From an uncultured Eubacteriales bacterium (GTDB lineage: Bacteria > Acidobacteriota > Aminicenantia > Aminicenantales > Aminicenantaceae): a stretch of 64,000 bases of DNA. The translations under genes were made by a program, and so were the position numbers. The DNA is taken from assembly GCA_964456985.1 (NCBI GenBank), contig CAYWDH010000011.1, positions 941 to 64,940 of the forward strand, in the 5' to 3' direction. Under the pieces are notes generated by a model, which was not told the DNA's origin, made no database searches, and saw nothing but the letters and a program-made list of their open reading frames with translations. Positions 17,113-53,012 of the stretch are shown piece after piece (position 1 is the first letter of the stretch; each line of letters begins with the position of its first letter).

Positions 17113-17230
17113 CAAGGGAAAGCTCTATTCTTACTGAACATCACTAATTCTCATTTCTGTTGGATTTTGTTGACCAGATGTGTTTTTTGTTTGTATTATA
17201 ATCAAAAGAATTGCTTTGAGGGCAGAAATT
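17113..17230 (+). repeat. Promoter-bearing repeat, copy 1 (degenerate, 3-prime truncated)
   Basis: TTGACC at 17170..17175 and TATTAT at 17194..17199, spacer 18 nt. The left flank aagggaaagctctattcttactga parallels copy 2. The leader is kept only to ttgctttgagggcagaaatt. It lies 126 nt upstream of the ATG at 17357. Confidence 0.6.
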
Positions 17231-17356
17231 CTATAAAGAGGATCGGCATACGTTTCTTTAGAAAAATAAAGATTTGAAAACTCTATATTTAAATCAGATA
17301 AAACTCAAAGCGGAGAAGAGTAGAATAAAAAAAAATAAAAAAAAGGAGTAATTAAA

Positions 17357-18391
17357 ATGAAGTATCTACGTATCTGTCTGGTCTTCCTGTGGGCAATGGC
17401 AATATTGAGCTGTACCCCAGCTCAAGAGCAAGAGCCGGGCGGTTATCACCTGCTTAAAAAGCATGTGCTTGGTGGTGAGGGCGGATGGGATTACATGGCA
17501 CTGGACGGCCGGACCCGCCTCCTCTATGTGACACACAGCAATACTGTCGAGGTCCTGAATGTCGACACCGGTGTTAAGGGTGAGCCGATTGTCAATCTCA
17601 ATGGAGCCCATGGGGTGGCCTTTGCTCCGGAAAGAAACCGGGGATATATATCTAATGGCAGGGGCAACTCTGTTTCCGTCTTTGATCTCAAAACTCACGA
17701 GATCCTTGAAGAAATTCCATCCTCTGGCCAAAATCCTGACTCCATCATGTACGATGCTTACTCAGATCGAGTTTTTACTTTCAATGGCAGGACAGGGAAC
17801 GCAACGGCCATAGATGCTGCTGAGAACAAGGTTGTCGGGACGGTCGATATCGGGGGTAAGCCTGAATTCTGTGTCACGGATACCAAAGGCACGATCTTTG
17901 TGAACAACGAGGACACAAGCGAGATTGTCGCCTTCGACTCCAAGTCTCTCGAAGTAATAAAACGGTGGTCGATCGCACCCGGTGAGGGTCCGAGCGGTTT
18001 GGCCATTGACCTCAAAGGCAAGCGACTGTTCAGTGTTTGCGATGAAGTTATGGTCGTTTCAGATTTCGTCAATGGAAATGTCGTCACGACGGTCCCCATT
18101 GGCCGTCGTCCAGATGCCGTTCGTTATGATCCTGAGACCAAGTTGATCTTCGCTTCGAACGGTGAGGGAACCCTGACGGTCATCAAACAGGAATCTCCTG
18201 ACGAGTACACTGTCATAGAAACAATCCCAACGGCCCGCGGTGCCCGAACCATGGAGCTTGACCCCAAAACGCACCATGTCTTCGTCGTAACGGCGGAATA
18301 TGGTCCGACTCCGGAGCCCACCGAAGAGCGGCCGCGGCCCCGAACCCCTGTCATCCCGGGTTCGTTCATGGTGCTCGAATTCGCGAGATAA
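17357..18391 (+). CDS. YncE/YVTN-type beta-propeller lipoprotein
   Basis: 344 aa with a lipoprotein signal (LWAMAILSC). It has repeated blade-like segments (LYVTHSNTVEVLNVDTG, GYISNGRGNSVSVFDLKT, RVFTFNGRTGNATAIDAAEN, IFVNNEDTSEIVAFDSKS, RLFSVCDEVMVVSDF, LIFASNGEGTLTVI). It is visibly more GC-rich than its surroundings. Confidence 0.6.
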   Translation: MKYLRICLVFLWAMAILSCTPAQEQEPGGYHLLKKHVLGGEGGWDYMALDGRTRLLYVTHSNTVEVLNVDTGVKGEPIVNLNGAHGVAFAPERNRGYISNGRGNSVSVFDLKTHEILEEIPSSGQNPDSIMYDAYSDRVFTFNGRTGNATAIDAAENKVVGTVDIGGKPEFCVTDTKGTIFVNNEDTSEIVAFDSKSLEVIKRWSIAPGEGPSGLAIDLKGKRLFSVCDEVMVVSDFVNGNVVTTVPIGRRPDAVRYDPETKLIFASNGEGTLTVIKQESPDEYTVIETIPTARGARTMELDPKTHHVFVVTAEYGPTPEPTEERPRPRTPVIPGSFMVLEFAR

Positions 18392-18427
18392 TCCGAATCG
18401 TCACCCCAGGCTTTACATATTCTTTAC

Positions 18428-18543
18428 TAAGGGAGATCTCTATTCTTTCTATGCCGCATTAAAAATGATTTTCTGATATTCTCCCTCTTTATGGGTTACT
18501 TGTTGACCGGACGACTTTTTTGTGTGTATTATTAATGGTGAAA
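18428..18543 (+). repeat. Promoter-bearing repeat, copy 2 (left half only)
   Basis: TTGACC at 18503..18508 and TATTAT at 18527..18532, spacer 18 nt. Upstream, DLYSFYAALK..MIF..DIL looks like an internally deleted version of the transposase tail seen at 47302..47484. Similarity stops at taatggtgaa, immediately followed by the RBS aaggag and the ATG at 18558. Confidence 0.7.
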
Positions 18544-18557
18544 AGGAGATTGAGTTG

Positions 18558-19667
18558 ATGAAAAAAAAGTTTGTTCTGTTTTTGGTGATATTGCTGCTTT
18601 TTCCACTGACATTATTAGCCCAAAGCGGCCAGAAAATGATATTGAGGTTCTTTGCGGAAGGGACCATGCAGGCTATGGGGATTTATGGTCCAGCCGGTGT
18701 CAAAATCAAGGCAGAAGGATATGCCTATTTAGCTCCAGGAACTCAGGGGAAAATTACCGGGAAAGGTGATATCTCTGTGACCATGGATTTCAATTATCAG
18801 AAAACAGGCTATGTGAGCATAAGCCAACTTAAGGGTTATGGACAAGTGGAAGTTGTGGGGAAGAAAGAAGGTAAATTCCTGCGATTCTATTTTAAACCAG
18901 GCAGCATCCCCTGCAAAGGAGAGATCGTCATTAATTATCCGCCTCCGATGGGTACACAAAAGGAACCGTATGAGGATCAGTTTAATCCCCAAGTTATCGC
19001 GCCAGAAGGAAATCCGGAAGCAAAAATAGAGTGGAGGAATTCAGCAGGAGTGGAATTCAGTTATGGTCCTGAGAGCTATGCAGGGGGAGCGCAGAAAGCG
19101 TCTTGGAAATCTGAATTAACTATACATAACTTGGAACATTGGAAAATTCATGTAAAAGGGGAGGAGACTGATACCTTACAGCCCCCGATCAAGAATCCGA
19201 AACTTAAGACACAAAGCAAAGAGTTGCCTGTTGCCGGGAAGTTTGAATGGGATCTGACCGGTGAGTTTTATATAATCGGGGTAGAAGGGGCAAGGCAGTA
19301 TCATGAAGGACATATTGTCTCTTCAGTAATCACATCAGGGGTTGTTTTTGATTTTAATGATCTTTACAGACCGCAGGAACTTCCGAGCTTTAAAACTTTG
19401 ATGACAGAGGGAGAGATCGGCGGGAAGATGATTGGGATGGGCGATACTGTTCAGCTGCAATGGCCCAAATTCATACCAAAGATTAGTTACTCCTTTGTTC
19501 CCCAATTATCCTATTTGGGACAGGAGCGCCCTCGAAGAGAGTTCAAATCAGGAGATTTTATGGGTTATCTTTCAAGTGAGAAGTTGCCCCTGTTGGATGG
19601 ACTGAGCTCTACAATGGAAGTGTCTGACTGGCTGAAATACAGAATCACACTCAAAAAGATTAAATAA
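18558..19667 (+). CDS. Secreted hypothetical protein
   Basis: ORF 18522..19667. I prefer the ATG at 18558, preceded by AAGGAG, which gives the signal peptide MKKKFVLFLVILLLFPLTLLAQS. No recognisable domain. Confidence 0.6.
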   Translation: MKKKFVLFLVILLLFPLTLLAQSGQKMILRFFAEGTMQAMGIYGPAGVKIKAEGYAYLAPGTQGKITGKGDISVTMDFNYQKTGYVSISQLKGYGQVEVVGKKEGKFLRFYFKPGSIPCKGEIVINYPPPMGTQKEPYEDQFNPQVIAPEGNPEAKIEWRNSAGVEFSYGPESYAGGAQKASWKSELTIHNLEHWKIHVKGEETDTLQPPIKNPKLKTQSKELPVAGKFEWDLTGEFYIIGVEGARQYHEGHIVSSVITSGVVFDFNDLYRPQELPSFKTLMTEGEIGGKMIGMGDTVQLQWPKFIPKISYSFVPQLSYLGQERPRREFKSGDFMGYLSSEKLPLLDGLSSTMEVSDWLKYRITLKKIK

Positions 19668-19675
19668 TCATAATA

Positions 19676-19738
19676 GAGAGCGGAAATTTGATGGAATGAA
19701 GGGAAAATCATCATCAACAGAAAAACGGTATTCCTATA
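19676..19738 (+). repeat. Promoter-bearing repeat, copy 3 (right / leader half only)
   Basis: gagagcggaaatttgatggaatgaagggaaaatcatcatcaacagaaaaacg is identical over 52 nt (by eye) to copy 4. It ends in attcctat at 19737. No -35/-10 part is present. Confidence 0.75.
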
Positions 19739-19879
19739 GATATTTTTAATGAGGATGGGAAATAGCCGGAGAGTTTTCCCTGAACTGGCTTCGTTTCAAA
19801 AGAAAAATGTAGGATGGAACTTTTTGTTTTAATATTTCGTTTGTTTTTATAGGGTAAAGTAGAATAGGGAAATTTGTTG

Positions 19880-22255
19880 ATGCTTAAAAATTACCTTAAA
19901 GTCGCTCTGCGGAATATCTTTCGTCATAAAGGCTACTCCGCGCTGATCATATTCGGCCTTGCTCTGGGGATGGCGATTTTTCTACTGGCGGCTGTTTACA
20001 CCCGATATAATTTCAGCTATGAGAGGTTCCATAAAGGTGCAGACAGGATCTACTTGGTGGTACAGGTCCTGCCTTCAGGAAACAAAGGACATCAAAATAC
20101 CGCTATCACACCAGCTCCGCTTCTCTCTGCGATGACAAGTGAATTTCCAGAAATTGAGGAAGCAACCCGATTCTCTCGGGGAAGAAGAATGATAGTAAGA
20201 GCAGGGGATCAATGCCATTATGAAAGCAACGTTCTCCTGGGAGAGAAGAACTTTTTTTCCTTTTTCAACTTTAGATTGCTCAGAGGAGACCCTCTTTCTG
20301 CCCTGGATGAACCGAACTCGATTATTCTATCCGAAGATTCAGCTCTGAAGTATTTCGGCGATGATGATCCTCTGGGAAAAACGCTGACTCTCGACAATAA
20401 TTTCGATGTTACGGTGACAGGGATCATAGAAAATCCTCCAGAGAATACTCGAATCCGGTATGATTTCCTCGCTCCATTGCAAGCCGCCCGAATCCTCTAC
20501 AACTGGATGGATGACTGGACGGTCAGCAGTCAGTCTAGTTTTATTAGACTTTATAAAGGAATGAAACCAGAAAGCCTGGAGGGAAAATTCCCCGCATTTA
20601 TAGGCAAATACTATCCTGATTCCCCGGAGTCTCCCAACAAGCTCTTCCTTTTGCCTTTAGTTGATTTTCTCCGAACAGCAGAATCTTTAGGTTTGAAGTC
20701 TCATTTAGACTACGATCCCAAGTTCACTATCTCCTATTTCTTGATAGCGATGGCCTTTGTGATTCTTATTGTGGTCGCCATCAATTTCATGAACCTCTCT
20801 ACATCCAGGTACATGTACAGGGCTAAGGAGATCGGCATGCGCAAAGTCATTGGCGCCAGCCGGATACAGCTGATCAAGCAGTTTTTAGGAGAATCCGTCA
20901 TCACCACATTCTTTTCCCTACCCTTGGCACTCCTACTGTTTTATCTGTTGAAACCAGCTTTTCATGCGTATATAGAAAGCCATATCACCCTTTCACCCTG
21001 GAACTATCCCTGGCTCTGTGTTGTCCTTTTAGGCGGCACGGTTCTTTTAGGTGTTTTTGCGGGCAGCTATCCGGCCTTTCTCCTCTCTTCCTTCAAACCC
21101 GTACAGGTACTCAAGGGGAATATTAGAGTCGGTCGCAAAGGAACATCTCTGCGCAAAATTTTGGTAATTTCTCAATTCACGCTCTCTATATTGATGATCG
21201 TTTTTTCTTTGACCATAGGGCGGCAGGTGAACTATTTCACGGAGATGGACCACGGCTTTCAGAGAGAAAAGGTAATCACTATCGCTCTCCCTCCTGAATC
21301 CCGGGATAAGCTTGAGCTTCTAAAAAAAGATCTGGCCTCTCATCCGGATATTCTGAGTGTTTCCTCGGCACAGAATCGGCCCATCAACTGGGGATCAGAA
21401 GATCAGGTCATACCTGAGGGGTATGACGAAAGAGATGCCTGGACGATGAATACATACGGTATAGACTATGGTTTCATTGAGCTCCTGGGAGTTCAGATTC
21501 TTCAAGGAAGAAGTTTTTCCCCAGAATATGAGGACAGGGAAAATTTTATCCTCAATGAAACAGCGGTCAGACAGCTCAAGTGGGACAATCCGCTCGGAAA
21601 AACGTTAAGGCTAGACGGAAAAAAAGGTCAGGTTGTCGGGGTAACGAAGGATTTTCTTTTTGATAACCCGCATTGGGGAATCAGACCAGCTGTTCTCTAT
21701 TTAGAGAAAAAAGAACCCGGTTATCTTTTTGTTAAAATATCAGATGTCCCTCAAACGAGGATGATCGAAGCCATAAAACAGAAATGGCAAGCTTTGGTAC
21801 CGGGGCTTCCGTTCACCTATTCTACCCTGGAGGACAGGTTCGATGCAGCCTACCGATATGTCGGACAAATGGCCGTCGTTTTTGGAGCCTTTGGGGTACT
21901 GGCCATCTTCATCTCATGTCTGGGACTGATTGCTATGGCGTTTTATTCGGTCAGCAGAAGAACGAAAGAAATCGGAGTCCGGAAAGCCCTGGGGGCATCT
22001 GTGCCTGGTATTACCCGACTTCTTCTCATCGGGTTTCTCAAACAGATTATACTTGCCAATGTGGTCGCATGGCCCCTGACCTATTTTCTCCTGAAAAAAT
22101 TCCTTCAGTTTGCCTGGGCTTACACTCCCAACATCTCCTTGATCCTGTTTGTTCTGGCCGCTCTAGTGACGCTATCGACCGCAATCCTTTCGGTTATTTA
22201 TCAGACGGTCAAGGCCTCTCTGACCAATCCAGCTGAGGCGTTGCGCTATGAATAG
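19880..22255 (+). CDS. ABC transporter permease, MacB/FtsX-like with duplicated FtsX domains
   Basis: ORF from TTG 19874; the ATG at 19880 gives MLKNYLKVALRNIFRHKGYSALIIFGLALGMAIF, the typical MacB_PCD/FtsX N-terminus. A second FtsX module lies at the C-terminus (KEIGVRKALGAS...). No cognate ATPase gene is adjacent. Confidence 0.8.
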   Translation: MLKNYLKVALRNIFRHKGYSALIIFGLALGMAIFLLAAVYTRYNFSYERFHKGADRIYLVVQVLPSGNKGHQNTAITPAPLLSAMTSEFPEIEEATRFSRGRRMIVRAGDQCHYESNVLLGEKNFFSFFNFRLLRGDPLSALDEPNSIILSEDSALKYFGDDDPLGKTLTLDNNFDVTVTGIIENPPENTRIRYDFLAPLQAARILYNWMDDWTVSSQSSFIRLYKGMKPESLEGKFPAFIGKYYPDSPESPNKLFLLPLVDFLRTAESLGLKSHLDYDPKFTISYFLIAMAFVILIVVAINFMNLSTSRYMYRAKEIGMRKVIGASRIQLIKQFLGESVITTFFSLPLALLLFYLLKPAFHAYIESHITLSPWNYPWLCVVLLGGTVLLGVFAGSYPAFLLSSFKPVQVLKGNIRVGRKGTSLRKILVISQFTLSILMIVFSLTIGRQVNYFTEMDHGFQREKVITIALPPESRDKLELLKKDLASHPDILSVSSAQNRPINWGSEDQVIPEGYDERDAWTMNTYGIDYGFIELLGVQILQGRSFSPEYEDRENFILNETAVRQLKWDNPLGKTLRLDGKKGQVVGVTKDFLFDNPHWGIRPAVLYLEKKEPGYLFVKISDVPQTRMIEAIKQKWQALVPGLPFTYSTLEDRFDAAYRYVGQMAVVFGAFGVLAIFISCLGLIAMAFYSVSRRTKEIGVRKALGASVPGITRLLLIGFLKQIILANVVAWPLTYFLLKKFLQFAWAYTPNISLILFVLAALVTLSTAILSVIYQTVKASLTNPAEALRYE

Positions 22256-22275
22256 TCGTTGTGATGTAGGGGCAT

Positions 22276-22389
22276 ATGAGCAAAATTTACCGCCGACGTC
22301 ATCCGGAACGCACCGTGTTTTACAGCGCGCTTTTCTATTATTTTGAGTCATTTCTTCTGGAACATGAAAACCGGTTTGAGAGACACTAA
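22276..22389 (+). pseudogene. N-terminal fragment (37 codons) of an IS91-family transposase gene
   Basis: MSKIYRRRHPERTVFYSALFYYFESFLLEHENRFERH-stop. The RRxxPExTxxY...F pattern is the start of the Zn-binding N-terminal domain of IS91-family (Y2) transposases, recalled from memory. The fragment is fused directly to repeat copy 4. Confidence 0.55.
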
Positions 22390-22390
22390 A

Positions 22391-22524
22391 GTTCTCTTTT
22401 TTATGGGTCACTTGTTGACCGGACGTAATTTTTGTGTGTATTATATTCAATAAAGTCGCTTGGAGAGCGGAAATTTGATGGAATGAAGGGAAAATCATCA
22501 TCAACAGAAAAACGAATTTCCTAT
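22391..22524 (+). repeat. Promoter-bearing repeat, copy 4 (full length)
   Basis: TTGACC at 22415..22420 and TATTAT at 22439..22444, spacer 18 nt. The leader ends in tttcctat at 22524, 11 nt before the ATG at 22536. Confidence 0.8.
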
Positions 22525-22535
22525 GTTGTTTGCTA

Positions 22536-25328: not shown

Positions 25329-25355
25329 TCAGGTGCAGTGGTGATCGCTGTAAAG

Positions 25356-34160: not shown

Positions 34161-34184
34161 TTCTATACTCCGCTTGCTCTGAAA

Positions 34185-39554: not shown

Positions 39555-39564
39555 GAGTTAAAAA

Positions 39565-42239: not shown

Positions 42240-42240
42240 C

Positions 42241-42352
42241 CTGTTGACCTGAGATGTTTTTGGTGTGTATTATATTCGATAAAGTCGCTTAGAGGGCGGA
42301 AATCTGATGAAATTAAGTAAAAATCAGCAGCAACAGAAAAACGAAATTCCTT
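42241..42352 (+). repeat. Promoter-bearing repeat, copy 5 (5-prime truncated, divergent leader)
   Basis: It starts 1 nt after the mutase stop codon. TTGACC at 42244..42249 and TATTAT at 42268..42273, spacer 18 nt. The leader, ...gtcgcttagagggcggaaatctgatgaaattaagtaaaaatcagcagcaacagaaaaacgaaattcct, ends 16 nt before the ATG at 42369. Confidence 0.75.
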
Positions 42353-42368
42353 TTATCAACTCATACCT

Positions 42369-43526: not shown

Positions 43527-43542
43527 ATGGATCCATTCAGAC
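43521..43542. other. Perfect 22-bp palindrome overlapping the AraC stop codon, followed by a C9 tract (43547..43555)
   Basis: gtctgaatggatccattcagac is its own reverse complement. The C9 run then follows, then 9 nt, then TATAAT at 43565..43570, which is 30 nt before the ATG at 43600. Confidence 0.7.
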
Positions 43543-43599
43543 GACACCCCCCCCCATTATGTCTTATAATTCCACATATCATGTTGAAGGAAGACAGAT

Positions 43600-45639
43600 A
43601 TGAAGTATTTCACATATTCCCATTATCGCAAACTTCCAATGTTATGGATTCTGGCGTTATACGTTTTTTCTCCTTGGGGCTACACTGATAAAGCTCCGAG
43701 GTGGACTCCTGAAGAAATCATTAAAACCAAGACGATCCTGGATTTGGCGATTTCTCCAAATGGTCAGCAGGCAGTCTATGTCGTTTCTCAAGCCGTATTT
43801 CAGAAAGATGTTCCGACCTTTCAAAGAAGACTTTATCTCAGCCGAGCCGGTCAAATGCAAAGTGTCCCCCTCACACCAGCCGACCAGACGGCATTATCTC
43901 CAAAGTGGTCTCCGGATGGGAAGTGGATAACGTATGTTTCACCCGGAAACACCGCGTTGAATTTATGGATCATCCCTGCTTCCGGGGGGACTCCGAGACA
44001 ATTGACCCGATTTTCCCAGGGAATTCGTGATCATGTGTGGTCCCCGGATGGCCTGCGCATAGCCATCGTGGCTCCAGGGGATCTGAGTCCCGATGTTCTG
44101 GATTCGTATGACGTCGATAATCAATCTGAGATCCAAGGGAATCACATATGGCTGCTATCTATGGACCAAACCGAAACCGGGAAGAATCCTATTCGTCAGC
44201 TCACTCGGGGAGATTTTACCGTTCTTTTAGGTTTGGACTGGTCTCCGGATGGGAAATCCATCGCTTTTTCGCATGCTCCGATCGAGGAAACCGGGTTTGT
44301 AGGAGGAGAAGCCAGATACCTCTGTGACATCTCTATTTTGGATCTCTCTTCCGGACACAGAAAGATCCTTGTTGATTCAAATGCATCAGAATTCAGGCCG
44401 ATTTTTTCGCCTGATGGAAAATGGCTAGCCTACTCGGCGACCGAAGATCCTCCTAACAGAGCCCATTCTCAAGATTTGATCAGAATTAACATCAAGACAG
44501 GAGAGAAAATCGGCTTTCACCATTCGTTCGACAGGCTGGTGGACTATTTCGCGAGCCTTTGGAAACCGTTGGGCTGGTCAGCTGACGGTCAGGAATTTTT
44601 TATCATGGAGTGCCGGGGGACTATCAGCCGGATTTCAGCTTTACCCGTATCCGGAAGCCCTCCGAGAGATATCGATTTGGGCGATAGGCTGATTTGGCCT
44701 GCCTGCTTAAACCGGCATAAAACATATTTTGGATTTGTGGGGCAAACATCATCCAAACCCGAGGAGGTTTTTCTGACCCCAGTCAATAACTTTAATCCGC
44801 AGAAAATAAGCCATCTCCACCAGGATCTACCTGATTGGCCCTTAGGAGAAACCAGAGTCGTCAGCTGGGAATCTATAGACGGGACAACCATAGAAGGATT
44901 GCTTTCTCTCCCAGTCGGATATGAATCGGGACGTAAATATCCACTCATCCTGATTGTGCATGGAGGACCCGCCGCAGCTCATCTGCAACAGTACACGGCC
45001 GCATCGTCTATGGGGAACAATCTGATGGTCTCGGCCTTCACTTCCAAAGGCTATCTTGTCTTCAGGCCGAATCCGCGCGGATCGGCCGGATATGGCCCCC
45101 GGTTTCGATTCGATCTTATATCCAGGATGGGAGATCTGGATTACCAGGATGTGATGGCCGGTATCCATTTTTTGATCAAGGAGGGAATCGCAGATCCTGC
45201 CAAAATGGGAGTTATCGGGGTCAGTTACGGAGGGTATCTTACTGGATGCATTATCTCTAAGACAAATCGTTTCAAAGCTGCAGTGATCATATGCGGCGAT
45301 TCGGATCTTCTAAGCTCATACGGAACGAGTGATATTCCCGGTATGATTTCGGGGTATATGGGATATGAGCCCTGGGAAAACTATCTAGGCTACCTAGAGG
45401 CATCACCGGTCTATTATGTTAGCAAAATCGAAACACCTGTGTTGATCCAACATGGCGAAAAAGACGAAAGAGTCCATGTCACCCAAGCAAAAGAGTTCTC
45501 GACATATCTTAAACGTTTCGGGAGAGTCCCGGTCCGATTGGTGATCTATCCAAATATGGGGCACAGAATTACTGATCCTGGAAGGAATATCCTTATAGTC
45601 AATAATTCCCTGACATGGTTTGCCAAGTATGTTAAATAG
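43600..45639 (+). CDS. S9-family serine peptidase (prolyl oligopeptidase / dipeptidyl aminopeptidase type)
   Basis: 679 aa. The N-terminal propeller has PD40 blades (WSPDGKWITY, WSPDGLRIAI, WSPDGKSIAF, FSPDGKWLAY). The C-terminal alpha/beta hydrolase has the nucleophile elbow GVSYGGY, then GEKDERV and NMGHR. Confidence 0.85.
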   Translation: MKYFTYSHYRKLPMLWILALYVFSPWGYTDKAPRWTPEEIIKTKTILDLAISPNGQQAVYVVSQAVFQKDVPTFQRRLYLSRAGQMQSVPLTPADQTALSPKWSPDGKWITYVSPGNTALNLWIIPASGGTPRQLTRFSQGIRDHVWSPDGLRIAIVAPGDLSPDVLDSYDVDNQSEIQGNHIWLLSMDQTETGKNPIRQLTRGDFTVLLGLDWSPDGKSIAFSHAPIEETGFVGGEARYLCDISILDLSSGHRKILVDSNASEFRPIFSPDGKWLAYSATEDPPNRAHSQDLIRINIKTGEKIGFHHSFDRLVDYFASLWKPLGWSADGQEFFIMECRGTISRISALPVSGSPPRDIDLGDRLIWPACLNRHKTYFGFVGQTSSKPEEVFLTPVNNFNPQKISHLHQDLPDWPLGETRVVSWESIDGTTIEGLLSLPVGYESGRKYPLILIVHGGPAAAHLQQYTAASSMGNNLMVSAFTSKGYLVFRPNPRGSAGYGPRFRFDLISRMGDLDYQDVMAGIHFLIKEGIADPAKMGVIGVSYGGYLTGCIISKTNRFKAAVIICGDSDLLSSYGTSDIPGMISGYMGYEPWENYLGYLEASPVYYVSKIETPVLIQHGEKDERVHVTQAKEFSTYLKRFGRVPVRLVIYPNMGHRITDPGRNILIVNNSLTWFAKYVK

Positions 45640-45706
45640 CTGAGGCCTCATTCCTCCAACTTCTGCTTATAAAAACAATGAACTCAAAATAATTCATAAA
45701 AAATAA

Positions 45707-45715
45707 TGATATAAT
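45707..45715 (+). promoter_or_regulatory. Extended -10 element (TGaTATAAT) upstream of the M20 peptidase gene
   Basis: TG at 45707..45708 and TATAAT at 45710..45715, 34 nt before the ATG at 45749. No good -35 element. Confidence 0.3.
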
Positions 45716-45748
45716 ACAGGAAAAAAATGAAAGAGGCAGGAGGCAAAA

Positions 45749-47302
45749 ATGAAGAAATCGGCGACAACTGCAATTCTTATGATATTACTGGGCATTGGTA
45801 TATTCAGCAGTTTGCTTAGTGCAGATGAAGGACTGCTCCAGGCAATTCGAAACTATCGCAAGTCCCATGAACACCAGATAATCCGCGAGTTCACGGATCT
45901 TTTATCCATCCCCAATGTCTCGTCTGACCGGGAGAACATTCGCAAAAACGCCGTATTCATCCAAAAGATGCTAACAAAACGAGGAATCGACGCCCGTATC
46001 TTGGAGACAGCGGGTAACCCCGTGGTCTTCGGGGAACTGAAGGTGCCGGATGCGGCCAACACACTTCTTATTTATATCCACTACGACGGCCAGCCTGTCG
46101 ATCCCTCAAAATGGACGGATACACAGCCTTTCCAGCCAGCCCTGCGCCCTGGGAAATTACTGCCCGGGACGAGAGAACCCAATCCCATCCCGTTTCCGGA
46201 TGAAGGCGAACCCTATGATGAAAACTGGCGCATTTATGCCCGAGGTTCGAGCGATGATCGTGCTCCAATCATCGGATACATGACAGCTCTGGATGCTCTC
46301 CGGGCCGCTCAAATTCCGCTGAAAAACAACCTCAAGTTCATCCTGGAGGGCGAGGAGGAGGCCGGATCGATTAACCTCCGCCCATTCCTGGAAAAGCACC
46401 GGGATTTGCTGGATTGCGACGTTCTCTTCATGTGCGATGGTCCGGCTTATTATTCAGGCGATCCCACCCTGTTTTTCGGAGTACGCGGCATTACAAGCCT
46501 GGAAATTACGCTCTATGGTCCCAACACCAGTGTTCACAGCGGGCATTACGGCAACTGGATCCCCAATCCAGGAATCCGGCTGGCCCATCTGCTGGCCTCG
46601 ATGCGTGATCCCGATAGCAACGTGAAGATTCGGGGATGGTATGACTCCTGTTTACCGCTGTCAGAATCAGAGATCGAGGCTGTCAAGGCTATCCCTTCCT
46701 ATGAGCGGCAAATAATGCTCAACTACGGTTTTGCCCAACCGGAATCCAAATGGGAAAGTCTGATGATGGCAATCCAGTATCCGGCCCTCAACCTCAACGG
46801 TCTGAAAAGCGGCTGGACCGGAGCCCAACAGAGGACCATTGTGCCTCCTACTGCCACCGCTAGCCTAGACATCCGCTTGGTCAAGGGGAATGATCCCGAT
46901 CATATGGTGGGACTGGTCATCGATCACATCCGGCAGCAGGGGTATCATGTGGTGAAAAGGGATCCGGACACAGAAACAAGAATGAAGTATCCGTTGATTG
47001 CCCGGGTCGTACATAAAGAAAGCGGGTACAGGGCCTCAAGAACTCCCCTGGACCATCCCATCTCGCAAGCTGTGATAGCTGCCATATCCAAGCACAGCGA
47101 AAAACCGCCCGTACTGTTGCCATCCCTGGGGGGATCCCTTCCTATCTACTTGTTCAGTGATCTGCTTAAAGTCCCGGTCATCGGAGTTCCGATTGCCAAC
47201 CATGACAACAATCAGCATCAACCGGACGAGAACCTGCGCATCGGCCACCTCTGGACCGGAATCGAGACCTATGCCGCCCTGATAATGATGAGCGGGAAGT
47301 AA
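45749..47302 (+). CDS. M20-family metallopeptidase (dipeptidase-like), secreted
   Basis: 517 aa with a signal peptide. M20 motifs are present: LLIYIHYDGQPVD, ARGSSDDRAP and EGEEEAGS. Confidence 0.8.
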   Translation: MKKSATTAILMILLGIGIFSSLLSADEGLLQAIRNYRKSHEHQIIREFTDLLSIPNVSSDRENIRKNAVFIQKMLTKRGIDARILETAGNPVVFGELKVPDAANTLLIYIHYDGQPVDPSKWTDTQPFQPALRPGKLLPGTREPNPIPFPDEGEPYDENWRIYARGSSDDRAPIIGYMTALDALRAAQIPLKNNLKFILEGEEEAGSINLRPFLEKHRDLLDCDVLFMCDGPAYYSGDPTLFFGVRGITSLEITLYGPNTSVHSGHYGNWIPNPGIRLAHLLASMRDPDSNVKIRGWYDSCLPLSESEIEAVKAIPSYERQIMLNYGFAQPESKWESLMMAIQYPALNLNGLKSGWTGAQQRTIVPPTATASLDIRLVKGNDPDHMVGLVIDHIRQQGYHVVKRDPDTETRMKYPLIARVVHKESGYRASRTPLDHPISQAVIAAISKHSEKPPVLLPSLGGSLPIYLFSDLLKVPVIGVPIANHDNNQHQPDENLRIGHLWTGIETYAALIMMSGK

Positions 47303-47484
47303 TCCGCTATTATGGTTTCTATTCCAATGCTCATAAGAGGAAGGTACGTAAGACAGGGGCTCAACCTTCTCATCCCCCAATCATTGAAGATAGCCCGTCC
47401 TATGTGCCTGTCAAGGGTTGGGCTGAGATGATAAAGAAAGTCTATGAGTCTGATATTCTCTCTTTTTTGTGGGTTACTTGTTGA
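47302..47484 (+). pseudogene. C-terminal fragment (60 codons) of an IS91-family (Y2) transposase gene, running into repeat copy 6
   Basis: IRYYGFYSNAHKRKVRKTGAQPSHPPIIEDSPSYVPVKGWAEMIKKVYESDILSFLWVTC-stop. The RYYGxYSN...W(A)xxIKKVYE(V)D(P)L pattern matches the C-terminal region of IS91-family transposases as I recall it. The frame starts on the last base of the M20 stop codon. Its last 33 nt are the first 33 nt of the repeat core. Confidence 0.6.
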
Positions 47485-47585
47485 CCGGATGTATTTTTTG
47501 TGTGTATTATCAATGATTAGGTCGCTTTGAGGGCGGAAATTTGATGAAACGGAGGGAAAATCAACAACAACAGAAAAAAGACTAT
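47452..47585 (+). repeat. Promoter-bearing repeat, copy 6 (full length, contiguous with the transposase tail)
   Basis: TTGACC at 47481..47486 and TATTAT at 47505..47510, spacer 18 nt. The leader gtcgctttgagggcggaaatttgatgaaacggagggaaaatcaacaacaacagaaaaaag ends 21 nt before the ATG at 47607. Confidence 0.8.
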
Positions 47586-47606
47586 TATTTTTATTAAAAA
47601 TAAAAA

Positions 47607-48503
47607 ATGAACTCAATAAAACTCAAATATAATCCAATAAATTATCTTTTATCTGCCAGACAGCTGGCCTGGGTAAAATATCAGACACTTGTTCGAATCC
47701 TCCAAAAACCTATAGACGATCCGGATGTTTCCCTCTGGCATAAAAAGCGGGATTCATCGGCAATAGTGGCAAACTTAAAGGCAAAACAGGGAGATTCAGG
47801 ATGGTTCCCCTCGTTGCCCTGGATGCATATCCATACTTACTATTTTCATCGGTTGATTGAGATGGGCTATGGATTAGAGGATGCAACTGTGAAGAAGGCC
47901 GCAGACAATCTTTTGAATTACCAATTACCGAATGGCGGATACATGCATCCAACCGGTCCGAGAGTAAATACACCAAATCCACAAGAAGGATGGGCTGCCT
48001 GTGTAACTGGTTATACTACCAAGGCACTAATGGATATTGGCTTAACTGATCATCCAAAAGTAAAAAAATCGCTAAATATTTTGTTAAACGGACAAAATTT
48101 TGATGGCGGTTGGATTTGCCAACGGGGCGGTCCTTGTCTTGATGAAAGTAGTTGTATCATCTCTGGATCACCGTGGGTATTTGCATGTCTTGTACAAGCG
48201 CACCTGATTGACGCCAATAGCTCAGTAACGAAAAAAGCAGTCAGGATGTTTAATAAGTTCAAAAAAGAAATTATAAATCATGGCTATATGCAGGACAGAT
48301 GTTATCGCTGTGACGAATCATTATTGATACCACCGTTATGTGGTTTAGGACATTCAGAACGAAATTCCCTTCTCAGTGACTTGATTGAATCGCTTATCAA
48401 AAAGCAACAACCGGATGGTTCCTGGCTGTTCAGGGATAAACGTTCGGCCTGGTATACAATTGAAGCTGTTGTTTCACTTCAGGCTGCGGGTATTAATATT
48501 TAA
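47607..48503 (+). CDS. Prenyltransferase / squalene-cyclase-repeat (alpha-alpha toroid) protein
   Basis: 298 aa with repeated QW-like units (NYQLPNGGY, NGQNFDGGW, KKQQPDGSW). Confidence 0.6.
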   Translation: MNSIKLKYNPINYLLSARQLAWVKYQTLVRILQKPIDDPDVSLWHKKRDSSAIVANLKAKQGDSGWFPSLPWMHIHTYYFHRLIEMGYGLEDATVKKAADNLLNYQLPNGGYMHPTGPRVNTPNPQEGWAACVTGYTTKALMDIGLTDHPKVKKSLNILLNGQNFDGGWICQRGGPCLDESSCIISGSPWVFACLVQAHLIDANSSVTKKAVRMFNKFKKEIINHGYMQDRCYRCDESLLIPPLCGLGHSERNSLLSDLIESLIKKQQPDGSWLFRDKRSAWYTIEAVVSLQAAGINI

Positions 48504-48546
48504 CCTGAGATTTTAAAACAAATCATACAAAAACAAATTCGGTTAT

Positions 48547-48645
48547 AAGGATGGGCTGATTTTTTTGATATTCTCTCTTTTTTGTGGGTTACTTGTTGAC
48601 CGGACGTGTTTTTTGTTTGTATTATTAATGGTGAAGTTGCTTTTC
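48547..48645 (+). repeat. Promoter-bearing repeat, copy 7 (left half, leader truncated)
   Basis: It starts with aaggatgggctga, a deleted form of the ..KGWAE.. transposase tail. TTGACC at 48596..48601 and TATTAT at 48620..48625, spacer 18 nt. Similarity stops after gtgaagttgctttt, 50 nt before the ATG at 48696. Confidence 0.75.
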
Positions 48646-48695
48646 AGCACATCTAAAACCATAAAGGCTCAGGAAAGTTTTAAAAGAGGAGAACT

Positions 48696-49394
48696 ATGAC
48701 AAAACATATAGGCATCATTGCATGCAGTGCTGAAGGAGCAGCCCTCTGTTATCGTACCATCTGTGCTGAATCACCTCAATATATGGGAGAGCACTTCCAT
48801 CCTGAAATCACCATACATACGCACTCTCTCGGGGATTATATGGTCCATATTCGGGAAGGGAACTGGACCGGAGTGGCTTCACTCATGCTCTCGTCTGTCC
48901 GAAAGGTTGCCAAATCAGGAGCTGATTTTGCCATCTGCCCCGACAACACAATTCATCAGGCTTACGACCTTTTCATTAAAGATTCTCCGATTCCCTGGTT
49001 GCACATTGCGGATACCGTTGGACAGAACGCGCGGAAAAAAGGATACGGCAGACTGGGCATTATCGGAACGAAATACCTTATGACCGGGCCTGTATATCCG
49101 AAAATCCTGGAGGCCATAGGCATATCCTGCGACATCCCTAAGCAAGAAGATCGGGAGCGGATTGACACAATTATCTTTAGTGAACTGGTTAAGGGAATTT
49201 TTACAGAAGAATCCAGAGGTTTTGTCAATAAAGTCATCCAGAGGCTAAGAGGTAGAGGTTGTGAAGCCGTCGTCTTGGGGTGTACGGAGATTCCTTTGCT
49301 GGTGGACCCCAAAGACTGTCCCCTTCCAACCCTTGATTCAACCCGTCTCCTAGCGAAAGCAGCTATAAAAGAAGCATTGAAAATGGACATGTGA
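48696..49394 (+). CDS. Asp/Glu-racemase-family protein (YgeA / aspartate racemase-like)
   Basis: 232 aa. Family blocks are present: HIGIIACSAEGAALCY, FAICPDNTIHQ (first Cys region, one residue longer than the CTNTMH type), GIIGTKYLM and VLGCTEIPLL. Confidence 0.7.
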   Translation: MTKHIGIIACSAEGAALCYRTICAESPQYMGEHFHPEITIHTHSLGDYMVHIREGNWTGVASLMLSSVRKVAKSGADFAICPDNTIHQAYDLFIKDSPIPWLHIADTVGQNARKKGYGRLGIIGTKYLMTGPVYPKILEAIGISCDIPKQEDRERIDTIIFSELVKGIFTEESRGFVNKVIQRLRGRGCEAVVLGCTEIPLLVDPKDCPLPTLDSTRLLAKAAIKEALKMDM

Positions 49395-49482
49395 TACCAC
49401 TGTTCCGGTTATGGAATGGGAAAACCGTCCAAGGGAGGGGGTTCGTCCATGAAGGCGTCAGCGCTTATCTTTAGGAAATTTC

Positions 49483-49621
49483 GATATTCTCTCTTTTTTG
49501 TGGGTTACTTGTTGACCGGATGTATTTTTTGTGTGTATTATTAATGGCGAAGCTGCTTTGAGGGCGGAAATTTGATGAAACGGAGGGAAAATCACAATCA
49601 ACAGAAAAAAGAAATCCCTAT
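49483..49621 (+). repeat. Promoter-bearing repeat, copy 8 (full length)
   Basis: TTGACC at 49512..49517 and TATTAT at 49536..49541, spacer 18 nt. The leader ends in atccctat at 49621, 38 nt before the ATG at 49660. The upstream segment 49395..49482 reads ..SGYGMGKPSKGG..ASALIFRKF.. and may be a further decayed transposase tail. Confidence 0.8.
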
Positions 49622-49659
49622 CTTTTAAATATACTTTAGCCATGTAATCGGAGGGGACA

Positions 49660-52600
49660 ATGACTATTGAGTGCCCGAAGTGTAGAGCCAAAAATCCCGA
49701 TGATACAGCTTTCTGCGGGAAATGCGGGACAAAACTCGACCTGGATGTAAGTCCCACAAAAACCATAGAAACACCAACCGAAGAACTCACTCGAAGAAGC
49801 ATCTTTGCCGGAAGATATGAGATCATCGAAGAGCTCGGCAAGGGAGGGATGGGCAGGGTCTATCGAGTAGAGGATAAAAAGACAAAAGAAGAAATCGCCT
49901 TAAAGCTGATCAAACCTGAGATAGCCACAGATAAAAAGACGATCGAAAGATTCCGGAATGAACTGACGACCGCCCGGAAAATAAGGCATAAAAATGTCTG
50001 TGGTATGTTCGATCTGGGAGAAGAAAAAGGGCTTCATTTCATCACCATGGAGTATATCTCAGGGCAGGATTTGAAGGGACTGATCAAGCAGTCAGCCCCA
50101 CTAAGCGTGGTCAGGACAATCATGGTCGCAAAACAGATCTGCGAAGGTTTAATTGAAGCCCATAAGCTGGGCATCGTGCACCGAGACCTCAAGCCATCCA
50201 ACATCATGATCGACAAAGAGGGCGACATCAAGATAATGGACTTTGGAATCGCACGTTATTTAAAGGGAAAAGGCATCACTGGCGCTGGAGTGATGATCGG
50301 AACACCCGAGTACATGAGCCCTGAGCAGGTAGAAGCCAAGGAGGTTGATCAGCGTTCTGACATCTACTCCCTCGGAATCATCCTGTATGAAATGACGACA
50401 GGCAAACTGCCCTTCGAGGCGGATACACCTTTTGCTGTAGGAGTAAAACAAAAAAGTGAAGAACCAGAGAATCCTAAGGATATCAATCCACAGATTCCTG
50501 AAGACCTCAGCCGAGTGATACTGAAGTGTTTGAATAAAGACAAGGGGAATCGATATCAGAATGCGGGAGAGGTTCAGTCAGAACTGGAGAATATTGAGAA
50601 AAACATACCCTCCACACAACGTGAAATTTCCAAGAAAAAACCCCTTACATCTAGAGAGATAACTGTGACATTGGGATTGAGGAGGCTCCTCATCCCTGCT
50701 TTTGTCATTATTGCCCTAGTCATTGCCGCAGTAGCTATCTGGCAGCTTCTTCCCCAAAAAAAAGCAGTAGCTACTCAAAAGATTGAGAACTCTGTGGCGG
50801 TCATCAGCTTTGAAAATCAGACAGGAGATAAAGCCTACGACTATCTGGGAAAAGCCATCCCTAGTCTCTTGATCACAAACCTTGAGAATACGGGGTATCT
50901 TTACGTGGCCACATGGGAGCGAATGCTTGATCTCCTTAATCAAATGGGGGAAAAAAACGTGCAGGTCATCGACAGGAATTTGGGTTTTGATCTCTGCCAG
51001 AGGGAAGGAATAGAAGCTATTGTTCTTGGTAGCTTCATCAAAATGGGAGATACGTTTGCTACTGATGTGAAAGTTCTGGATGTGGATACGATGAAACTTC
51101 TGACGAGTGCAAGCTCACAGGGTGAAGGAGTTGACAGTATTATAAAGACCCAAATTAATAAATTGAGTGAGGATATATCACAAGGGATAGGCATAGCCAG
51201 ACAGAAAATTGATGCAACTCAATTGCAGATCGCTGAGGTTACAACAACTTCAATGGAAGCTTATAACCATTTTTTAAAAGGGAAAGAGAACTATGATCTC
51301 TGGAATCATATTGATGCCCAGCGATTTCTTGAGAAGGCTGTTGAGCTTGATCCGACTTTTGCTATAGCCTACTACTATCTTGCTCTAACACACCATCGGC
51401 TGGGTGATAATAAATCGAGAGATGAGACTTTAGAGAAAGCTAAGGCATTTTCCGAGAAGGCGTCAGAGAAAGAGAGACTTTATATTGAAGCAGAATATGC
51501 TCTTACTATTGAAAATAATCGAGAAAAAAGATTTCGTATCCTAACACAAATGGAAAAAAAATATCCCAAAGAAAAACGAGTTAAGCATGATTTGGGTGTG
51601 TATTACCAAAGCATAAATCGGCATAAAGGAATAGAACTGTTTAAAGAAGCACTGGAACTCGATCCCAGCTATGGACTTGTCATTAATCAACTTGGGTACG
51701 CATATACTGGTTTGGATGATTACGAGAAGGCGATCGAATGTTTCAAGAAGTATGCCTTTCTTTATCCTAGAGATGCTAATCCACTTGACTCGTGGGCTGA
51801 AGCCTATTTCAAAATGGGAAGGCTTGACGAATCCATAGCGAAATACAAAGAAGCGTTAATAGTGAATCCCGACTTTTATAACGCTTACTGGAAGATAGGA
51901 TACATCTATGCTTTAAAGGAAAATTACTCTCAAGCAATGAACTGGGTTAATCAAGATATTTCTATAGCCCCCACTCTATCCACAAAAGCCGATGGTGGGT
52001 TTATTTGGAAAGGATTCTATTATGCATGGCTAGGGAGATTTGACGAAGCCCTCATCGAACTTAAGAGAGTTGTAGACATATGGAAGAAGGTGGAAAATAA
52101 AGGCTGGGAATCCGTAACGGAGAGGATAATAGCATGGATATACTTTGACAGAGGAGAGCTTGAATCTTGCAGAAAGCATTTTAAAAAAGGATTCGATGCT
52201 TACATAAAAAATCTACCAGAGGCCATATCATATATTACTTTAGCAAATAGCACTTATCTTGGGTTAGCGGAATTAAAGGAAGGGCGAATCGATTCTGCAA
52301 AATCAAGACTGTCTAAGATGAAATCTCTTCTACCTAAAATAAACAATAAATATGCACTTTTCTATTATGACATACTAAACGGAGAAGTGTTGCTTGCAGA
52401 AGGGTCCGTAGATAAGGCAATCGCTGTCTGCGAAAACACAAGAACTTTAGGAACGCCAGCTATTACACATAGTATAAGGACAATAATGTATAGCATTCCC
52501 TTCCTTAATGATGCGTTGGCGAGGGCCTATCTACAAAAGGAGGAGTTGGATAAAGCCATTGCCGAATACCAACAGCTGATTACCTTTGATCCAAACAGTG

Positions 52601-52785
52601 AAGAGAGGCGTCTTATTCATCCTAAACTTCATTATAGGTTAGCCAAATTGTATGAAGAGAAAGGCTTGAGAGGCAAAGCCAGGGCAGAGTACGAGAAATT
52701 CCTCGACCTGTGGAAAGATGCTGATCCAGGCCTCTCCGAGGTTGAGGATGCGAGGAAGCGGCTGGCGGGATTGAAGGGCAGCTGA
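49660..52785 (+). CDS. Ser/Thr protein kinase with N-terminal zinc ribbon, one TM segment, periplasmic domain and TPR repeats
   Basis: 1041 aa. It has a zinc ribbon (CPKCRAKNPDDTAFCGKCG). Hanks kinase motifs are present: GKGGMGRVY, ALKLI, HRDLKPSN, DFG and GTPEYMSPE. A TM helix (LLIPAFVIIALVIAAVAIW) follows. Then come AVISFENQTGDKAYDYLGKAIP and multiple TPR units. Confidence 0.85.
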   Translation: MTIECPKCRAKNPDDTAFCGKCGTKLDLDVSPTKTIETPTEELTRRSIFAGRYEIIEELGKGGMGRVYRVEDKKTKEEIALKLIKPEIATDKKTIERFRNELTTARKIRHKNVCGMFDLGEEKGLHFITMEYISGQDLKGLIKQSAPLSVVRTIMVAKQICEGLIEAHKLGIVHRDLKPSNIMIDKEGDIKIMDFGIARYLKGKGITGAGVMIGTPEYMSPEQVEAKEVDQRSDIYSLGIILYEMTTGKLPFEADTPFAVGVKQKSEEPENPKDINPQIPEDLSRVILKCLNKDKGNRYQNAGEVQSELENIEKNIPSTQREISKKKPLTSREITVTLGLRRLLIPAFVIIALVIAAVAIWQLLPQKKAVATQKIENSVAVISFENQTGDKAYDYLGKAIPSLLITNLENTGYLYVATWERMLDLLNQMGEKNVQVIDRNLGFDLCQREGIEAIVLGSFIKMGDTFATDVKVLDVDTMKLLTSASSQGEGVDSIIKTQINKLSEDISQGIGIARQKIDATQLQIAEVTTTSMEAYNHFLKGKENYDLWNHIDAQRFLEKAVELDPTFAIAYYYLALTHHRLGDNKSRDETLEKAKAFSEKASEKERLYIEAEYALTIENNREKRFRILTQMEKKYPKEKRVKHDLGVYYQSINRHKGIELFKEALELDPSYGLVINQLGYAYTGLDDYEKAIECFKKYAFLYPRDANPLDSWAEAYFKMGRLDESIAKYKEALIVNPDFYNAYWKIGYIYALKENYSQAMNWVNQDISIAPTLSTKADGGFIWKGFYYAWLGRFDEALIELKRVVDIWKKVENKGWESVTERIIAWIYFDRGELESCRKHFKKGFDAYIKNLPEAISYITLANSTYLGLAELKEGRIDSAKSRLSKMKSLLPKINNKYALFYYDILNGEVLLAEGSVDKAIAVCENTRTLGTPAITHSIRTIMYSIPFLNDALARAYLQKEELDKAIAEYQQLITFDPNSEERRLIHPKLHYRLAKLYEEKGLRGKARAEYEKFLDLWKDADPGLSEVEDARKRLAGLKGS

Positions 52786-52864
52786 TTTCCCGGGCAGCGC
52801 AGTTGGTGAGCCCAATCTGAGCTCAATCGATTTTTTGTCCCATTGAACACGTTTAGTATTAATT

Positions 52865-53012
52865 AAAGGATGGGCTGAATTTTCTGATATTCTCTCTTTC
52901 TTGTGGGTTACTTGTTGACCGGACGTGTTTTTTGTGTGTATTATGCTTAGAGGGCGAAAAATTTGATGAAACGGAGGGGAAATCACAATCAACAAAAAAA
53001 CCAAATTCCTAT
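52865..53012 (+). repeat. Promoter-bearing repeat, copy 9 (full length with a small internal deletion after the -10)
   Basis: It starts with aaaggatgggctga. TTGACC at 52915..52920 and TATTAT at 52939..52944, spacer 18 nt. The leader ends in aattcctat at 53012, 42 nt before the GTG at 53055. Confidence 0.8.

Follow-up and report, generated by a model that had tools for sequence, protein, structure and literature searches.

What are nine nearly identical promoter-like modules doing in front of nine unrelated genes within 36 kb of one bacterial genome? The question is raised by a stretch of 64,000 nt (the window) of contig CAYWDH010000011.1, which comes from an uncultured bacterium of the Aminicenantaceae (Acidobacteriota). 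Its initial annotation described a repeat in nine places, always on the + strand, in which the hexamers TTGACC and TATTAT, 18 nt apart in eight of the copies, are followed by a "leader" of about 75 nt and then by a gene. The repeat was taken there for a mobile promoter, possibly left by an ISCR/IS91 gene-capture array. Our analysis indicates that the nine repeats are very likely (with a probability of about 85%) the right-hand (oriIS) ends of decayed copies of one rolling-circle insertion sequence (IS) of the IS91 family. The promoter-like site at each end probably now reads into the neighbouring gene.

The same nine places were recovered by repeat, pattern and nhmmer profile searches, and no copy was found on the - strand of the window. 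TTGACC-N18-TATTAT has eight exact + strand copies, against 0.33 expected from shuffles, in agreement with the spacing first reported, and a 33-nt core (TTGTTGACCGGAYGTNTTTTTTGTGTGTATTAT) occurs seven times at up to three mismatches, against 0.00 expected. The ninth copy consists of the downstream part, the tail, alone and has no promoter. An open reading frame (ORF) on the + strand starts ~6-140 nt past every one of the nine copies, and Pfam searches confirmed that the downstream genes are unrelated, as had been described (Table 1). While the positions first given for the copies stand, their upstream limits do not. Homology reaches further for copies 1, 4 and 6, and the extensions are remnants of a transposase gene.

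The source of these remnants became visible in related genomes. Scanning a genome collection with TTGACCNGANNNNNTTTTNGTNTGTATTAT returned 21 loci from at least eight species of metagenome-assembled genomes (MAGs), and a metagenome collection added 60 further loci. These 81 loci contain 77 unique copies, in which the homology does not stop at the promoter but runs on upstream into coding sequence. The 170 nt upstream of the copies translate as ...GWAEMIKKVYEIDPLICPKCGG...VIDKIIKHLNLTFKA.RPPPPQAQLSMAAEE..., the C-terminus of a protein. A full-length parent of 1582 bp is present in locus L006, with a transposase ORF of 417 aa (L006:1072-2325, - strand). The protein matches Pfam Y2_Tnp (2.2e-27) and Zn_Tnp_IS91 (6.7e-24), and scores 218.7 bits against the NCBIfam equivalog NF033538 "IS91 family transposase" (cutoff 125). 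Among transposases of annotated plasmids, it is 27% identical to those of ISCR1 (over 93% of the L006 protein) and ISVsa3, and 39.5% identical to one from a Trichlorobacter lovleyi plasmid.

From left to right, the parent has CTGC followed by AAGTAAACGACTGTTTACAC on the terIS side, ~120 nt of non-coding sequence, and tnpA, encoding zinc-binding and Y2 HUH domains. Then come a spacer of ~100 nt, a T-rich stretch, TTGACC-N18-TATTAT, and an oriIS tail of ~85 nt ending in ...GAATTTCCTAT. Since the repeat is continuous with the 3' side of tnpA, it represents the terminal ~150-230 nt downstream of the transposase, that is, the oriIS side. The assignment to IS91/ISCR elements is thus borne out by the transposase adjoining the repeat in related MAGs, and the repeat is terminal in its parent, not internal. 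About 95 nt before the -35 hexamer, the post-tnpA spacer also holds GAGATCTC (within AAGGGAGATCTCTGTTC), a perfect palindrome. It is found in most copies that keep this region, and may be a protein-binding site.

The ends of the element fit this family. The right boundary is TTCYTAT in 65 junctions, and the flanks are unrelated beyond the next four bases. These four follow the pattern CNTK, with C in 78%, no conservation at the second position, T in 92%, and T or G in 88% of the junctions; the commonest word is CTTT (22 junctions), followed by CGTG (7), CATT (6) and CCTT (6). The left end, AAGTAAACGACTGTTTACAC preceded by CTGC, was found in 11 copies, with the boundary (here and below marked by a slash) written CTGC/AAGTAAAC. 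The terIS side carries a subterminal palindrome, GTAAAC-N4-GTTTAC. Left and right ends are unrelated to each other in sequence, there are no terminal inverted repeats, and no direct repeats flank the eight elements with both ends (512-1582 bp), i.e., the target is not duplicated. Published work on IS91 agrees: its oriIS and terIS ends are distinct, terIS has a subterminal palindrome, the target tetranucleotide borders on oriIS, the target is not duplicated, and the last 82 bp are sufficient (PMC13181058).

The element terminus here, ...ACGAATTTCCTATC, has TTCCTAT in common with the oriIS termini that we read in ISCR1 (...CTTCCTATACCC, longer ...GGTTTATACTTCCTATACCC), ISVsa3/ISCR2 (...CTTCCTATACG, longer ...GTTTATTCTTCCTATACG), another ISCR (...CTTCCTATACCC, longer ...GTTGAACTTCCTATACCC) and the IS91-like element of Trichlorobacter (...ATTCCTATTCCTATAC, longer ...GCAAATTCCTATTCCTATAC). 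TTCCTAT(A/C)C is the terminus form shared across the family members compared. A likeness to oriIS termini of the TTCCTATAC type had previously been proposed, and it holds for the terminal TTCCTAT of these four elements.

A second question is whether the promoter-like site works. Of the 12 hexamer positions of TTGACC-N18-TATTAT, 10 agree with the sigma-70 consensus, and the site is among the top-scoring ones in the 41-54 kb region, where promoter-like sites in total are no more numerous than in shuffles (27 vs 24). Conservation was assessed in 20 copies found by profile and not selected by promoter pattern. In these, the -35 hexamer is TTGAC(T/C), at 80-100% per position, the -10 hexamer is T-A-T-N-A-T, at 90, 100, 95, ~50, 100 and 100%, and the spacing is constant at 18 nt. 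The spacer between the hexamers diverges widely between subfamilies (GGACGTGTTTTTTGTGTG vs TGTCCTTTATTTTATACG). Fixed hexamers at a fixed distance, around a diverging spacer, are the pattern expected of a promoter. In the window, the eight copies have no substitutions at the 12 hexamer positions and ~1-6 in each spacer, and copies 2, 5 and 7 are trimmed nearly to the promoter alone. Across MAG species, the whole unit is conserved, beyond the two hexamers. The site is, on balance, likely to be active, reading outward across the IS end. A precedent exists in ISCR1, where two outward promoters within the 232-bp oriIS region raise the expression of downstream genes 13- to 15-fold (PMC6218425). A sigma-54 promoter in the upstream spacer was rejected; L005 has TGGCAC-N5-TGC, but the GG and GC positions are not conserved in other copies.

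The direction of the neighbouring genes paints a similar picture. Counting non-redundant copies whose flanks are long enough, 56 point into a co-oriented downstream ORF and 23 face a convergent one (~70% co-oriented; p = 3e-4); outside the window, the numbers are 49 and 23 (p = 0.003). The orientation bias first noted in the window therefore extends beyond it, but is not absolute. Neighbouring repeat copies share their orientation with each other in 9/9 cases in the window, and in a ratio of 30:7 in other loci.

Together, these observations suggest a likely history. TTGACC-N18-TATTAT would act as an outward sigma-70-type promoter, similar to the POUT promoters of ISCR1, and transcribe over the oriIS end into downstream DNA. 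An insertion that separates a gene from its own promoter would be tolerated mainly in the orientation that restores the lost transcription. After decay of the IS by internal and 5' deletions, promoter-bearing ends would be preferentially kept where they drive a co-oriented host gene. The mutual co-orientation of neighbouring copies may simply follow gene orientation, or may reflect strand-specific integration of a single-stranded intermediate, as IS91 uses in its transposition (PMC13181058).

Several observations weigh against parts of this reading. About 30% of the copies face a convergent gene and copy 3 is a tail without promoter, so promoter use alone does not explain why the ends are retained. 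The terminal 230 nt are well conserved throughout (74-87% per region), and the conservation of the hexamers could thus partly reflect the needs of the transposase and oriIS, not of RNA polymerase. The 18-nt spacer is one above the optimal length. The tail consensus can be folded into two nested imperfect palindromes with 81% of cells paired, compared to 34-58% in slid controls, with covariation absent. Furthermore, the left IS boundary is placed only to within ~30 nt, and no intact copy of the IS is present in the window's own genome within the 64 kb covered.

ISCR1 is one of the closest parallels. Both elements have an IS91-family transposase, a non-coding region downstream of it (~230 nt in ISCR1, with the terminus ...CTTCCTATACCC), and copies that are often truncated at the terIS side. 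In the oriIS region of ISCR1, the outward sigma-70 POUT promoters PCR1-1 and PCR1-2 drive co-oriented genes (PMC6218425), an arrangement predicted here from sequence. The two promoters of ISCR1 are weak matches (TAAACG-N17-TAAGAT and TTCGGA-N18-TTTATA), whereas here one near-consensus site stands ~85 nt from the end. The contexts differ as well. ISCR1 is found only with class 1 integrons, on proteobacterial plasmids and beside resistance genes, while the copies here are many, chromosomal, beside housekeeping-type genes and in an uncultured lineage, and the transposases are only distantly related.

With IS91, IS801 and IS1294, the element shares a Y2 HUH transposase with an N-terminal zinc-binding domain, distinct terIS (with subterminal palindrome) and oriIS ends, the lack of terminal inverted repeats and of target duplication, a preferred tetranucleotide abutting oriIS, and a right end of ~80 bp that carries origin function (PMC13181058). 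It differs in its CNTK target (CTTT, CGTG, CATT, CCTT) compared to CTTG, GTTC or GTCC, in lacking orf121, in a long oriIS-side non-coding region (~260 nt) with a strong promoter-like site, and in that most copies are internal-deletion derivatives or solo ends.

Of the relatives found, the best annotated is the IS91-like element on plasmid pIAE1 of Trichlorobacter lovleyi, whose transposase is the one mentioned above as 39.5% identical (over 99% of its length). Here too, tnpA is followed by a promoter-like site, TTGACG-N18-TATACA, and then by the terminus, ...GAAAAAGCAAATTCCTATTCCTATAC compared to ...CAGAAAAACGAATTTCCTATC in our element, with the same layout and nearly the same terminal words. 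The distance from the -10 hexamer to the end is ~35 nt, instead of ~85 nt, the other non-coding sequence is unrelated, and the host belongs to a different phylum.

Other short repeats are known to provide promoters. The Correia elements of Neisseria are short, multicopy, non-autonomous repeats, conserved across related species, that give promoters to adjacent genes. They have terminal inverted repeats, duplicate a TA target, and occur in both orientations. Our element has neither inverted ends nor a duplication, and its ancestry is a rolling-circle IS. The "putative mobile promoters" of Nijveen, Matus-Garcia and van Passel (PMC3575422) are likewise promoter-bearing sequences of high similarity before unrelated genes, within and between genomes. 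They were defined by similarity, with no mechanism, whereas here the vehicle is identified as the end of an IS91-family element.

Four other readings of the locus were considered. The one that survives best goes further than ours, and we offer it tentatively. The near-consensus outward promoter could be a selected, built-in part of this IS91 lineage, perhaps of the whole family, given the promoter-like sites just inside oriIS in ISCR1 and the Trichlorobacter relative. It would serve the element first, either by driving a tnpA that is otherwise poor in promoters across the oriIS-terIS junction of circular intermediates or by opening the origin, and would be exapted genome-wide after decay. Solo oriIS ends would then be a natural system for the dispersal of promoters, having rewired the transcription of many genes of Aminicenantes, and their mutual co-orientation might reflect strand-specific integration of the single-stranded intermediate.

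Somewhat less likely, and doubtful in our view, is a promoter that serves the IS itself and not host genes, either by expressing tnpA across the oriIS-terIS junction of circles or tandems, or by opening oriIS for cleavage, with expression of the neighbours as a by-product. The site is conserved in tnpA-bearing copies and across subfamilies with diverged spacers, promoter-like sites stand just inside oriIS in the distant relatives ISCR1 and Trichlorobacter, and the ~120 nt upstream of tnpA show no good sigma-70 match when the sequence is read. In addition, IS91 circles do juxtapose oriIS and terIS (PMC13181058). However, the 81 loci yielded neither an oriIS-terIS junction nor a tandem copy, the double-stranded circles of IS91 are not integration-competent and its tnpA has internal promoters (PMC13181058), and the 70% co-orientation with downstream genes is not explained by this reading alone.

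The gene-capture array of the initial annotation is improbable. In such an array, the genes between the oriIS ends would have been mobilised by rolling-circle transposition past a missed terminator, and the window would be a series of stacked captured units. One-ended transposition is documented for IS91 and IS1294 (PMC13181058), and the ISCR28 "sandwich" has two sequential oriIS around a captured gene (PMC12772301). The strong mutual co-orientation of neighbouring copies would fit, and so would the fact that synteny with the closest MAG is lost precisely at copy 4, upstream of which the window has an FtsX permease and L007 an NHL beta-propeller gene. The left boundary shared by copies 7 and 9, AAGGATGGG, which follows CTCT in the parent, could be a pseudo-terminator. 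Against this, the window contains no terIS (0 matches at up to 3 mismatches) and no intact tnpA, as searched by tblastn with the L006 transposase, which found only 4 short fragments, contiguous with copies 1, 4 and 6. Captured DNA is expected to adjoin a complete IS at its terIS side, and this arrangement was not seen. The non-adjacent tnpA pieces in copies 1, 4 and 6 are the internal-deletion signature of ordinary insertions, and the different parts of tnpA kept by copy 4 and its ortholog point to decay in place after a full-length insertion. No intervening gene was found duplicated in another context, or beside this IS elsewhere, at high identity, and homologous recombination between IS copies explains the synteny break equally well. 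Copies 1, 4 and 6 thus read as internal-deletion derivatives of ordinary insertions, decayed in place.

The weakest reading, a host regulon signal made of a promoter and a cis-regulatory 5' leader RNA (a riboswitch, or a site for CsrA or a NusG paralog) instead of mobile DNA, is very unlikely and effectively ruled out: the repeat is always upstream of genes in the window, its leader is rich in purines and contains GGA motifs and a GGCGG-like stretch, and it is conserved over several MAG species, yet RNAalifold finds no consensus pair among 27 leaders, Rfam has no match at the gathering threshold in the window and no relevant one at E <= 1 in three loci, the alignment shows no conserved leader ORF, 23 of 79 copies face convergent genes, and the repeat is physically continuous with the IS91 transposase gene in parent copies and stops at the family terminal motif beside the target tetranucleotide. 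The supposed ~75-nt leader makes more sense as the oriIS end itself, and we infer that it is a DNA site acted on by the transposase, not a regulatory RNA.

Smaller candidates were also rejected. A leader peptide starting with ATGAAA... is open in some copies and stops after 2-9 codons in others of the alignment. For an ops/JUMPstart-like element (GGCGG...TG), GATGG replaces GGCGG in about half of the copies. An integron attC array, or a miniature inverted-repeat transposable element, does not fit the lack of inverted termini and of target duplication, nor the large genes between copies. A phage origin was rejected, as the viral contig collection does not contain the motif.

With the IS91-family element as the source, the single copies in the window can be understood as different remnants of its decay (Table 1). 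In copy 1, the two separate pieces of tnpA are followed by the post-tnpA spacer, the promoter, and a diverged, partial oriIS tail without the TTCCTAT terminus. The ~600 nt (16400-16996) between copy 1 and the divergent tricorn/S41 protease gene (13233-16400, - strand) have no IS similarity, and their sole ORF (16507-16815) has no Pfam match.

Copy 2 is cut at its 5' end within the post-tnpA spacer, where it retains the GAGATCTC palindrome, and at its 3' end ~11 nt past the -10 hexamer, directly before AAGGAG (18543-18548) and ATG 18558. The -10 stands 10 nt before AAGGAG and 25 nt before this ATG (region 18533-18560). The gene likely starts at ATG 18558, behind AAGGAG. GTG 18522 is probably wrong as a start, because it would overlap the -10 of copy 2. 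As far as the sequence can tell, copy 2 appears to offer the clearest example of a gene that has come to depend on the IS promoter.

Copies 3 and 4 are connected. The tail of copy 3 ends in ...TATTCCTAT/AGAT and is 95% identical to that of copy 4. Both tails share substitutions (GATGGAATGAAGGG) that are absent from the L007 ortholog of copy 4, which suggests gene conversion or copying in this genome after the lineages split. In copy 4, an internal deletion fused the start of tnpA to the element from ~25 nt upstream of the -35 hexamer; the tail ends in ...TTTCCTAT/GTTG at 22524, and nothing is left of the terIS side. Copy 4 has orthologs in L007 (MAG CAZUXT01) and L057 (a metagenome contig), with 94.5% identity from 22393 through the DUF5695 gene and beyond. 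The ortholog keeps tnpA aa 385-416 and the spacer, but not aa 1-37. Copy 4 and its ortholog hence derive from a full-length IS in the common ancestor, which decayed independently in each lineage.

In copy 5, homology begins just ~4 nt upstream of the -35 hexamer, and the terminus is degenerate (...AATTCCTTT/TATC). Its spacer is the most diverged of all copies, with the hexamers intact. Copy 6 went through an internal deletion that brought a tnpA remnant (...YYGFYSNAH...GWAEMIKKVYESD) next to the T-rich stretch, and the final ~10 nt of the tail are degenerate. The deletion junction of copy 6 recurs in L010, L014, L043, L076 and L079. In copy 8, the oriIS tail is complete, with the terminus ...AATCCCTAT/CTTT, and is preceded by the promoter and, before it, the T-rich stretch.

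Copy 7 begins with AAGGATGGGCTGA (tnpA codons for KGWAE) joined to TTTTTTGATATTCTC, and is cut ~17 nt past the -10 hexamer. It is 95% identical to copy 9, including the junction, which in copy 9 reads AAGGATGGGCTGA/ATTTTCTGAT. Copy 9 has a 13-nt deletion directly after the -10 hexamer and a complete tail with the terminus ...AATTCCTAT/CCTT. The shared derived junction (AAGGATGGGCTGA to TTTTCTGAT) indicates that one of the two gave rise to the other by copying, or that a common derivative gave rise to both. They start (48547-48560 and 52865-52880) at one internal position, AAGGATGGG, corresponding to position ~1170 of the L006 parent IS. The CTCT preceding it there resembles, with AAGGATGGG, the CTGC/AAG of the true left end. 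The boundary could have served rolling-circle transfer as an internal pseudo-terminator, or could be just that of a copied derivative.

Table 1. Positions of the nine repeat copies and of associated features. Unless a locus is named, positions are those of the window. Promoter starts come from repeat and pattern searches.
Feature	Location	Strand	Promoter block	oriIS tail	tnpA remnant or other content	Downstream product (Pfam)	Basis
Copy 1	16996-17246	+	17170-17199	17212-17246 (partial)	internally deleted IS remnant; aa 155-166 and 397-416 at 16996-17082	YncE-like beta-propeller	tblastn with L006 transposase; blastn against L006 IS; nhmmer profile positions 2-187
Copy 2	18428-18543	+	18503-18532			no-hit protein	blastn reference positions 1435-1549
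Copy 3	19674-19737	+		19676-19737 (complete or near-complete)	oriIS tail only	MacB/FtsX permease	repeat search; blastn reference positions 1564-1619; nhmmer
Copy 4	22276-22524	+	22415-22444	22463-22524 (complete or near-complete)	aa 1-37 at 22276-22386	DUF5695	tblastn, 76% identity over aa 1-37; blastn
Copy 5	42240-42353	+	42244-42273	42292-42353 (complete or near-complete)		AraC	blastn reference positions 1508-1617
Copy 6	47299-47590	+	47481-47510	47529-47590 (complete or near-complete)	aa 309-362 at 47299-47460	SQHop_cyclase_C-like repeat protein	tblastn, 59% identity, E = 4e-15; blastn
Copy 7	48547-48645	+	48596-48625			Asp/Glu racemase	repeat search; blastn reference positions 1475-1556
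Copy 8	49482-49621	+	49512-49541	49560-49621 (complete or near-complete)		Ser/Thr kinase with TPR	blastn reference positions 1486-1620
Copy 9	52865-53012	+	52915-52944	52951-53012 (complete or near-complete)		NagB-like	repeat search; alignment; junction table
Palindrome GAGATCTC, examples	18438-18452; L006 IS ~1440-1455						
IS110-family element in oriIS, L009	~2777	-					
IS110-family element in oriIS, L052	~6530	-			transposase 6664-7677		
IS110-family element in oriIS, L064	~129	+			transposase 355-1368		
Paralogous neighbours, beta-propellers	L005, L014, L031, L048, L007						
Paralogous neighbours, permeases	19874-22255; L017						
Paralogous neighbours, kinases	49660-52785; L045, L011, L023						

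Beyond the window, most of the 21 genome loci are labelled Candidatus Aminicenantes, Acidobacteriota, or generically "uncultured Eubacteriales", and from these sequences we regard the IS91-family element as abundant in Aminicenantes-type genomes. The copies across loci are mostly deletion derivatives, including miniature elements of 512-1200 bp with both ends. Two MAG bins labelled archaeal carry the element on contigs of 4.1-4.5 kb, L004 (WJKS01000026.1, "Aenigmatarchaeota") and L015 (CAZOEM010000321.1, "Halobacteria"), which is most simply explained by contamination of the bins with Aminicenantes-type DNA.

The oriIS end is itself a place of further insertions. In three copies, an IS110-family element with a 339-aa DEDD-type transposase is inserted at one identical position of the oriIS tail (...GAAATTCYT/TC/TATGATGATGTGATRCAAG) and, judging by this identity, appears to target the IS91-like end specifically. 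The reverse nesting, an IS91-like element interrupting IS110 transposase sequence, occurs in L014, L041 and L043. Tandem duplication of the IS terminus together with the adjoining tetranucleotide (aaattcttatCGTGaaaattcttatCGTG, gaatttcttatCTTTaaatttcttatCTTT) occurs in L012 (- strand, near 1897) and L042 (- strand, near 11272; + strand, near 125), and it may have been left by initiation or termination happening repeatedly at oriIS.

The genes adjoining the element often belong to large paralogous families, namely 6-bladed NHL-type beta-propeller lipoproteins, MacB/FtsX permeases and zinc-ribbon Ser/Thr kinases. The pattern could reflect only the abundance of these families in the genomes concerned. 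An orthologous element upstream of the Ser/Thr kinases in L045 and L011 was considered and rejected, since the junctions are non-homologous, which indicates independent events or paralogs.

The finding would represent a known phenomenon, outward promoters at IS ends, in a new host lineage, and it documents an undescribed IS91-family lineage in an uncultured clade; a search of one literature library found no paper combining Aminicenantes and IS91. Nine near-identical promoter-like modules in 36 kb are now placed in a well-understood class of mobile DNA, rather than being a new regulon signal or RNA, and the ends of the element, its target preference, and its many miniature derivatives are defined. 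For the annotation of MAGs, this means that the element should be masked before promoters, operons or conserved non-coding RNAs are called, and that the two archaea-labelled bins carrying it merit a contamination check. The theme known from ISCR1, an outward promoter at the oriIS end feeding its neighbours, seems to act here on ordinary chromosomal genes, and at high density.

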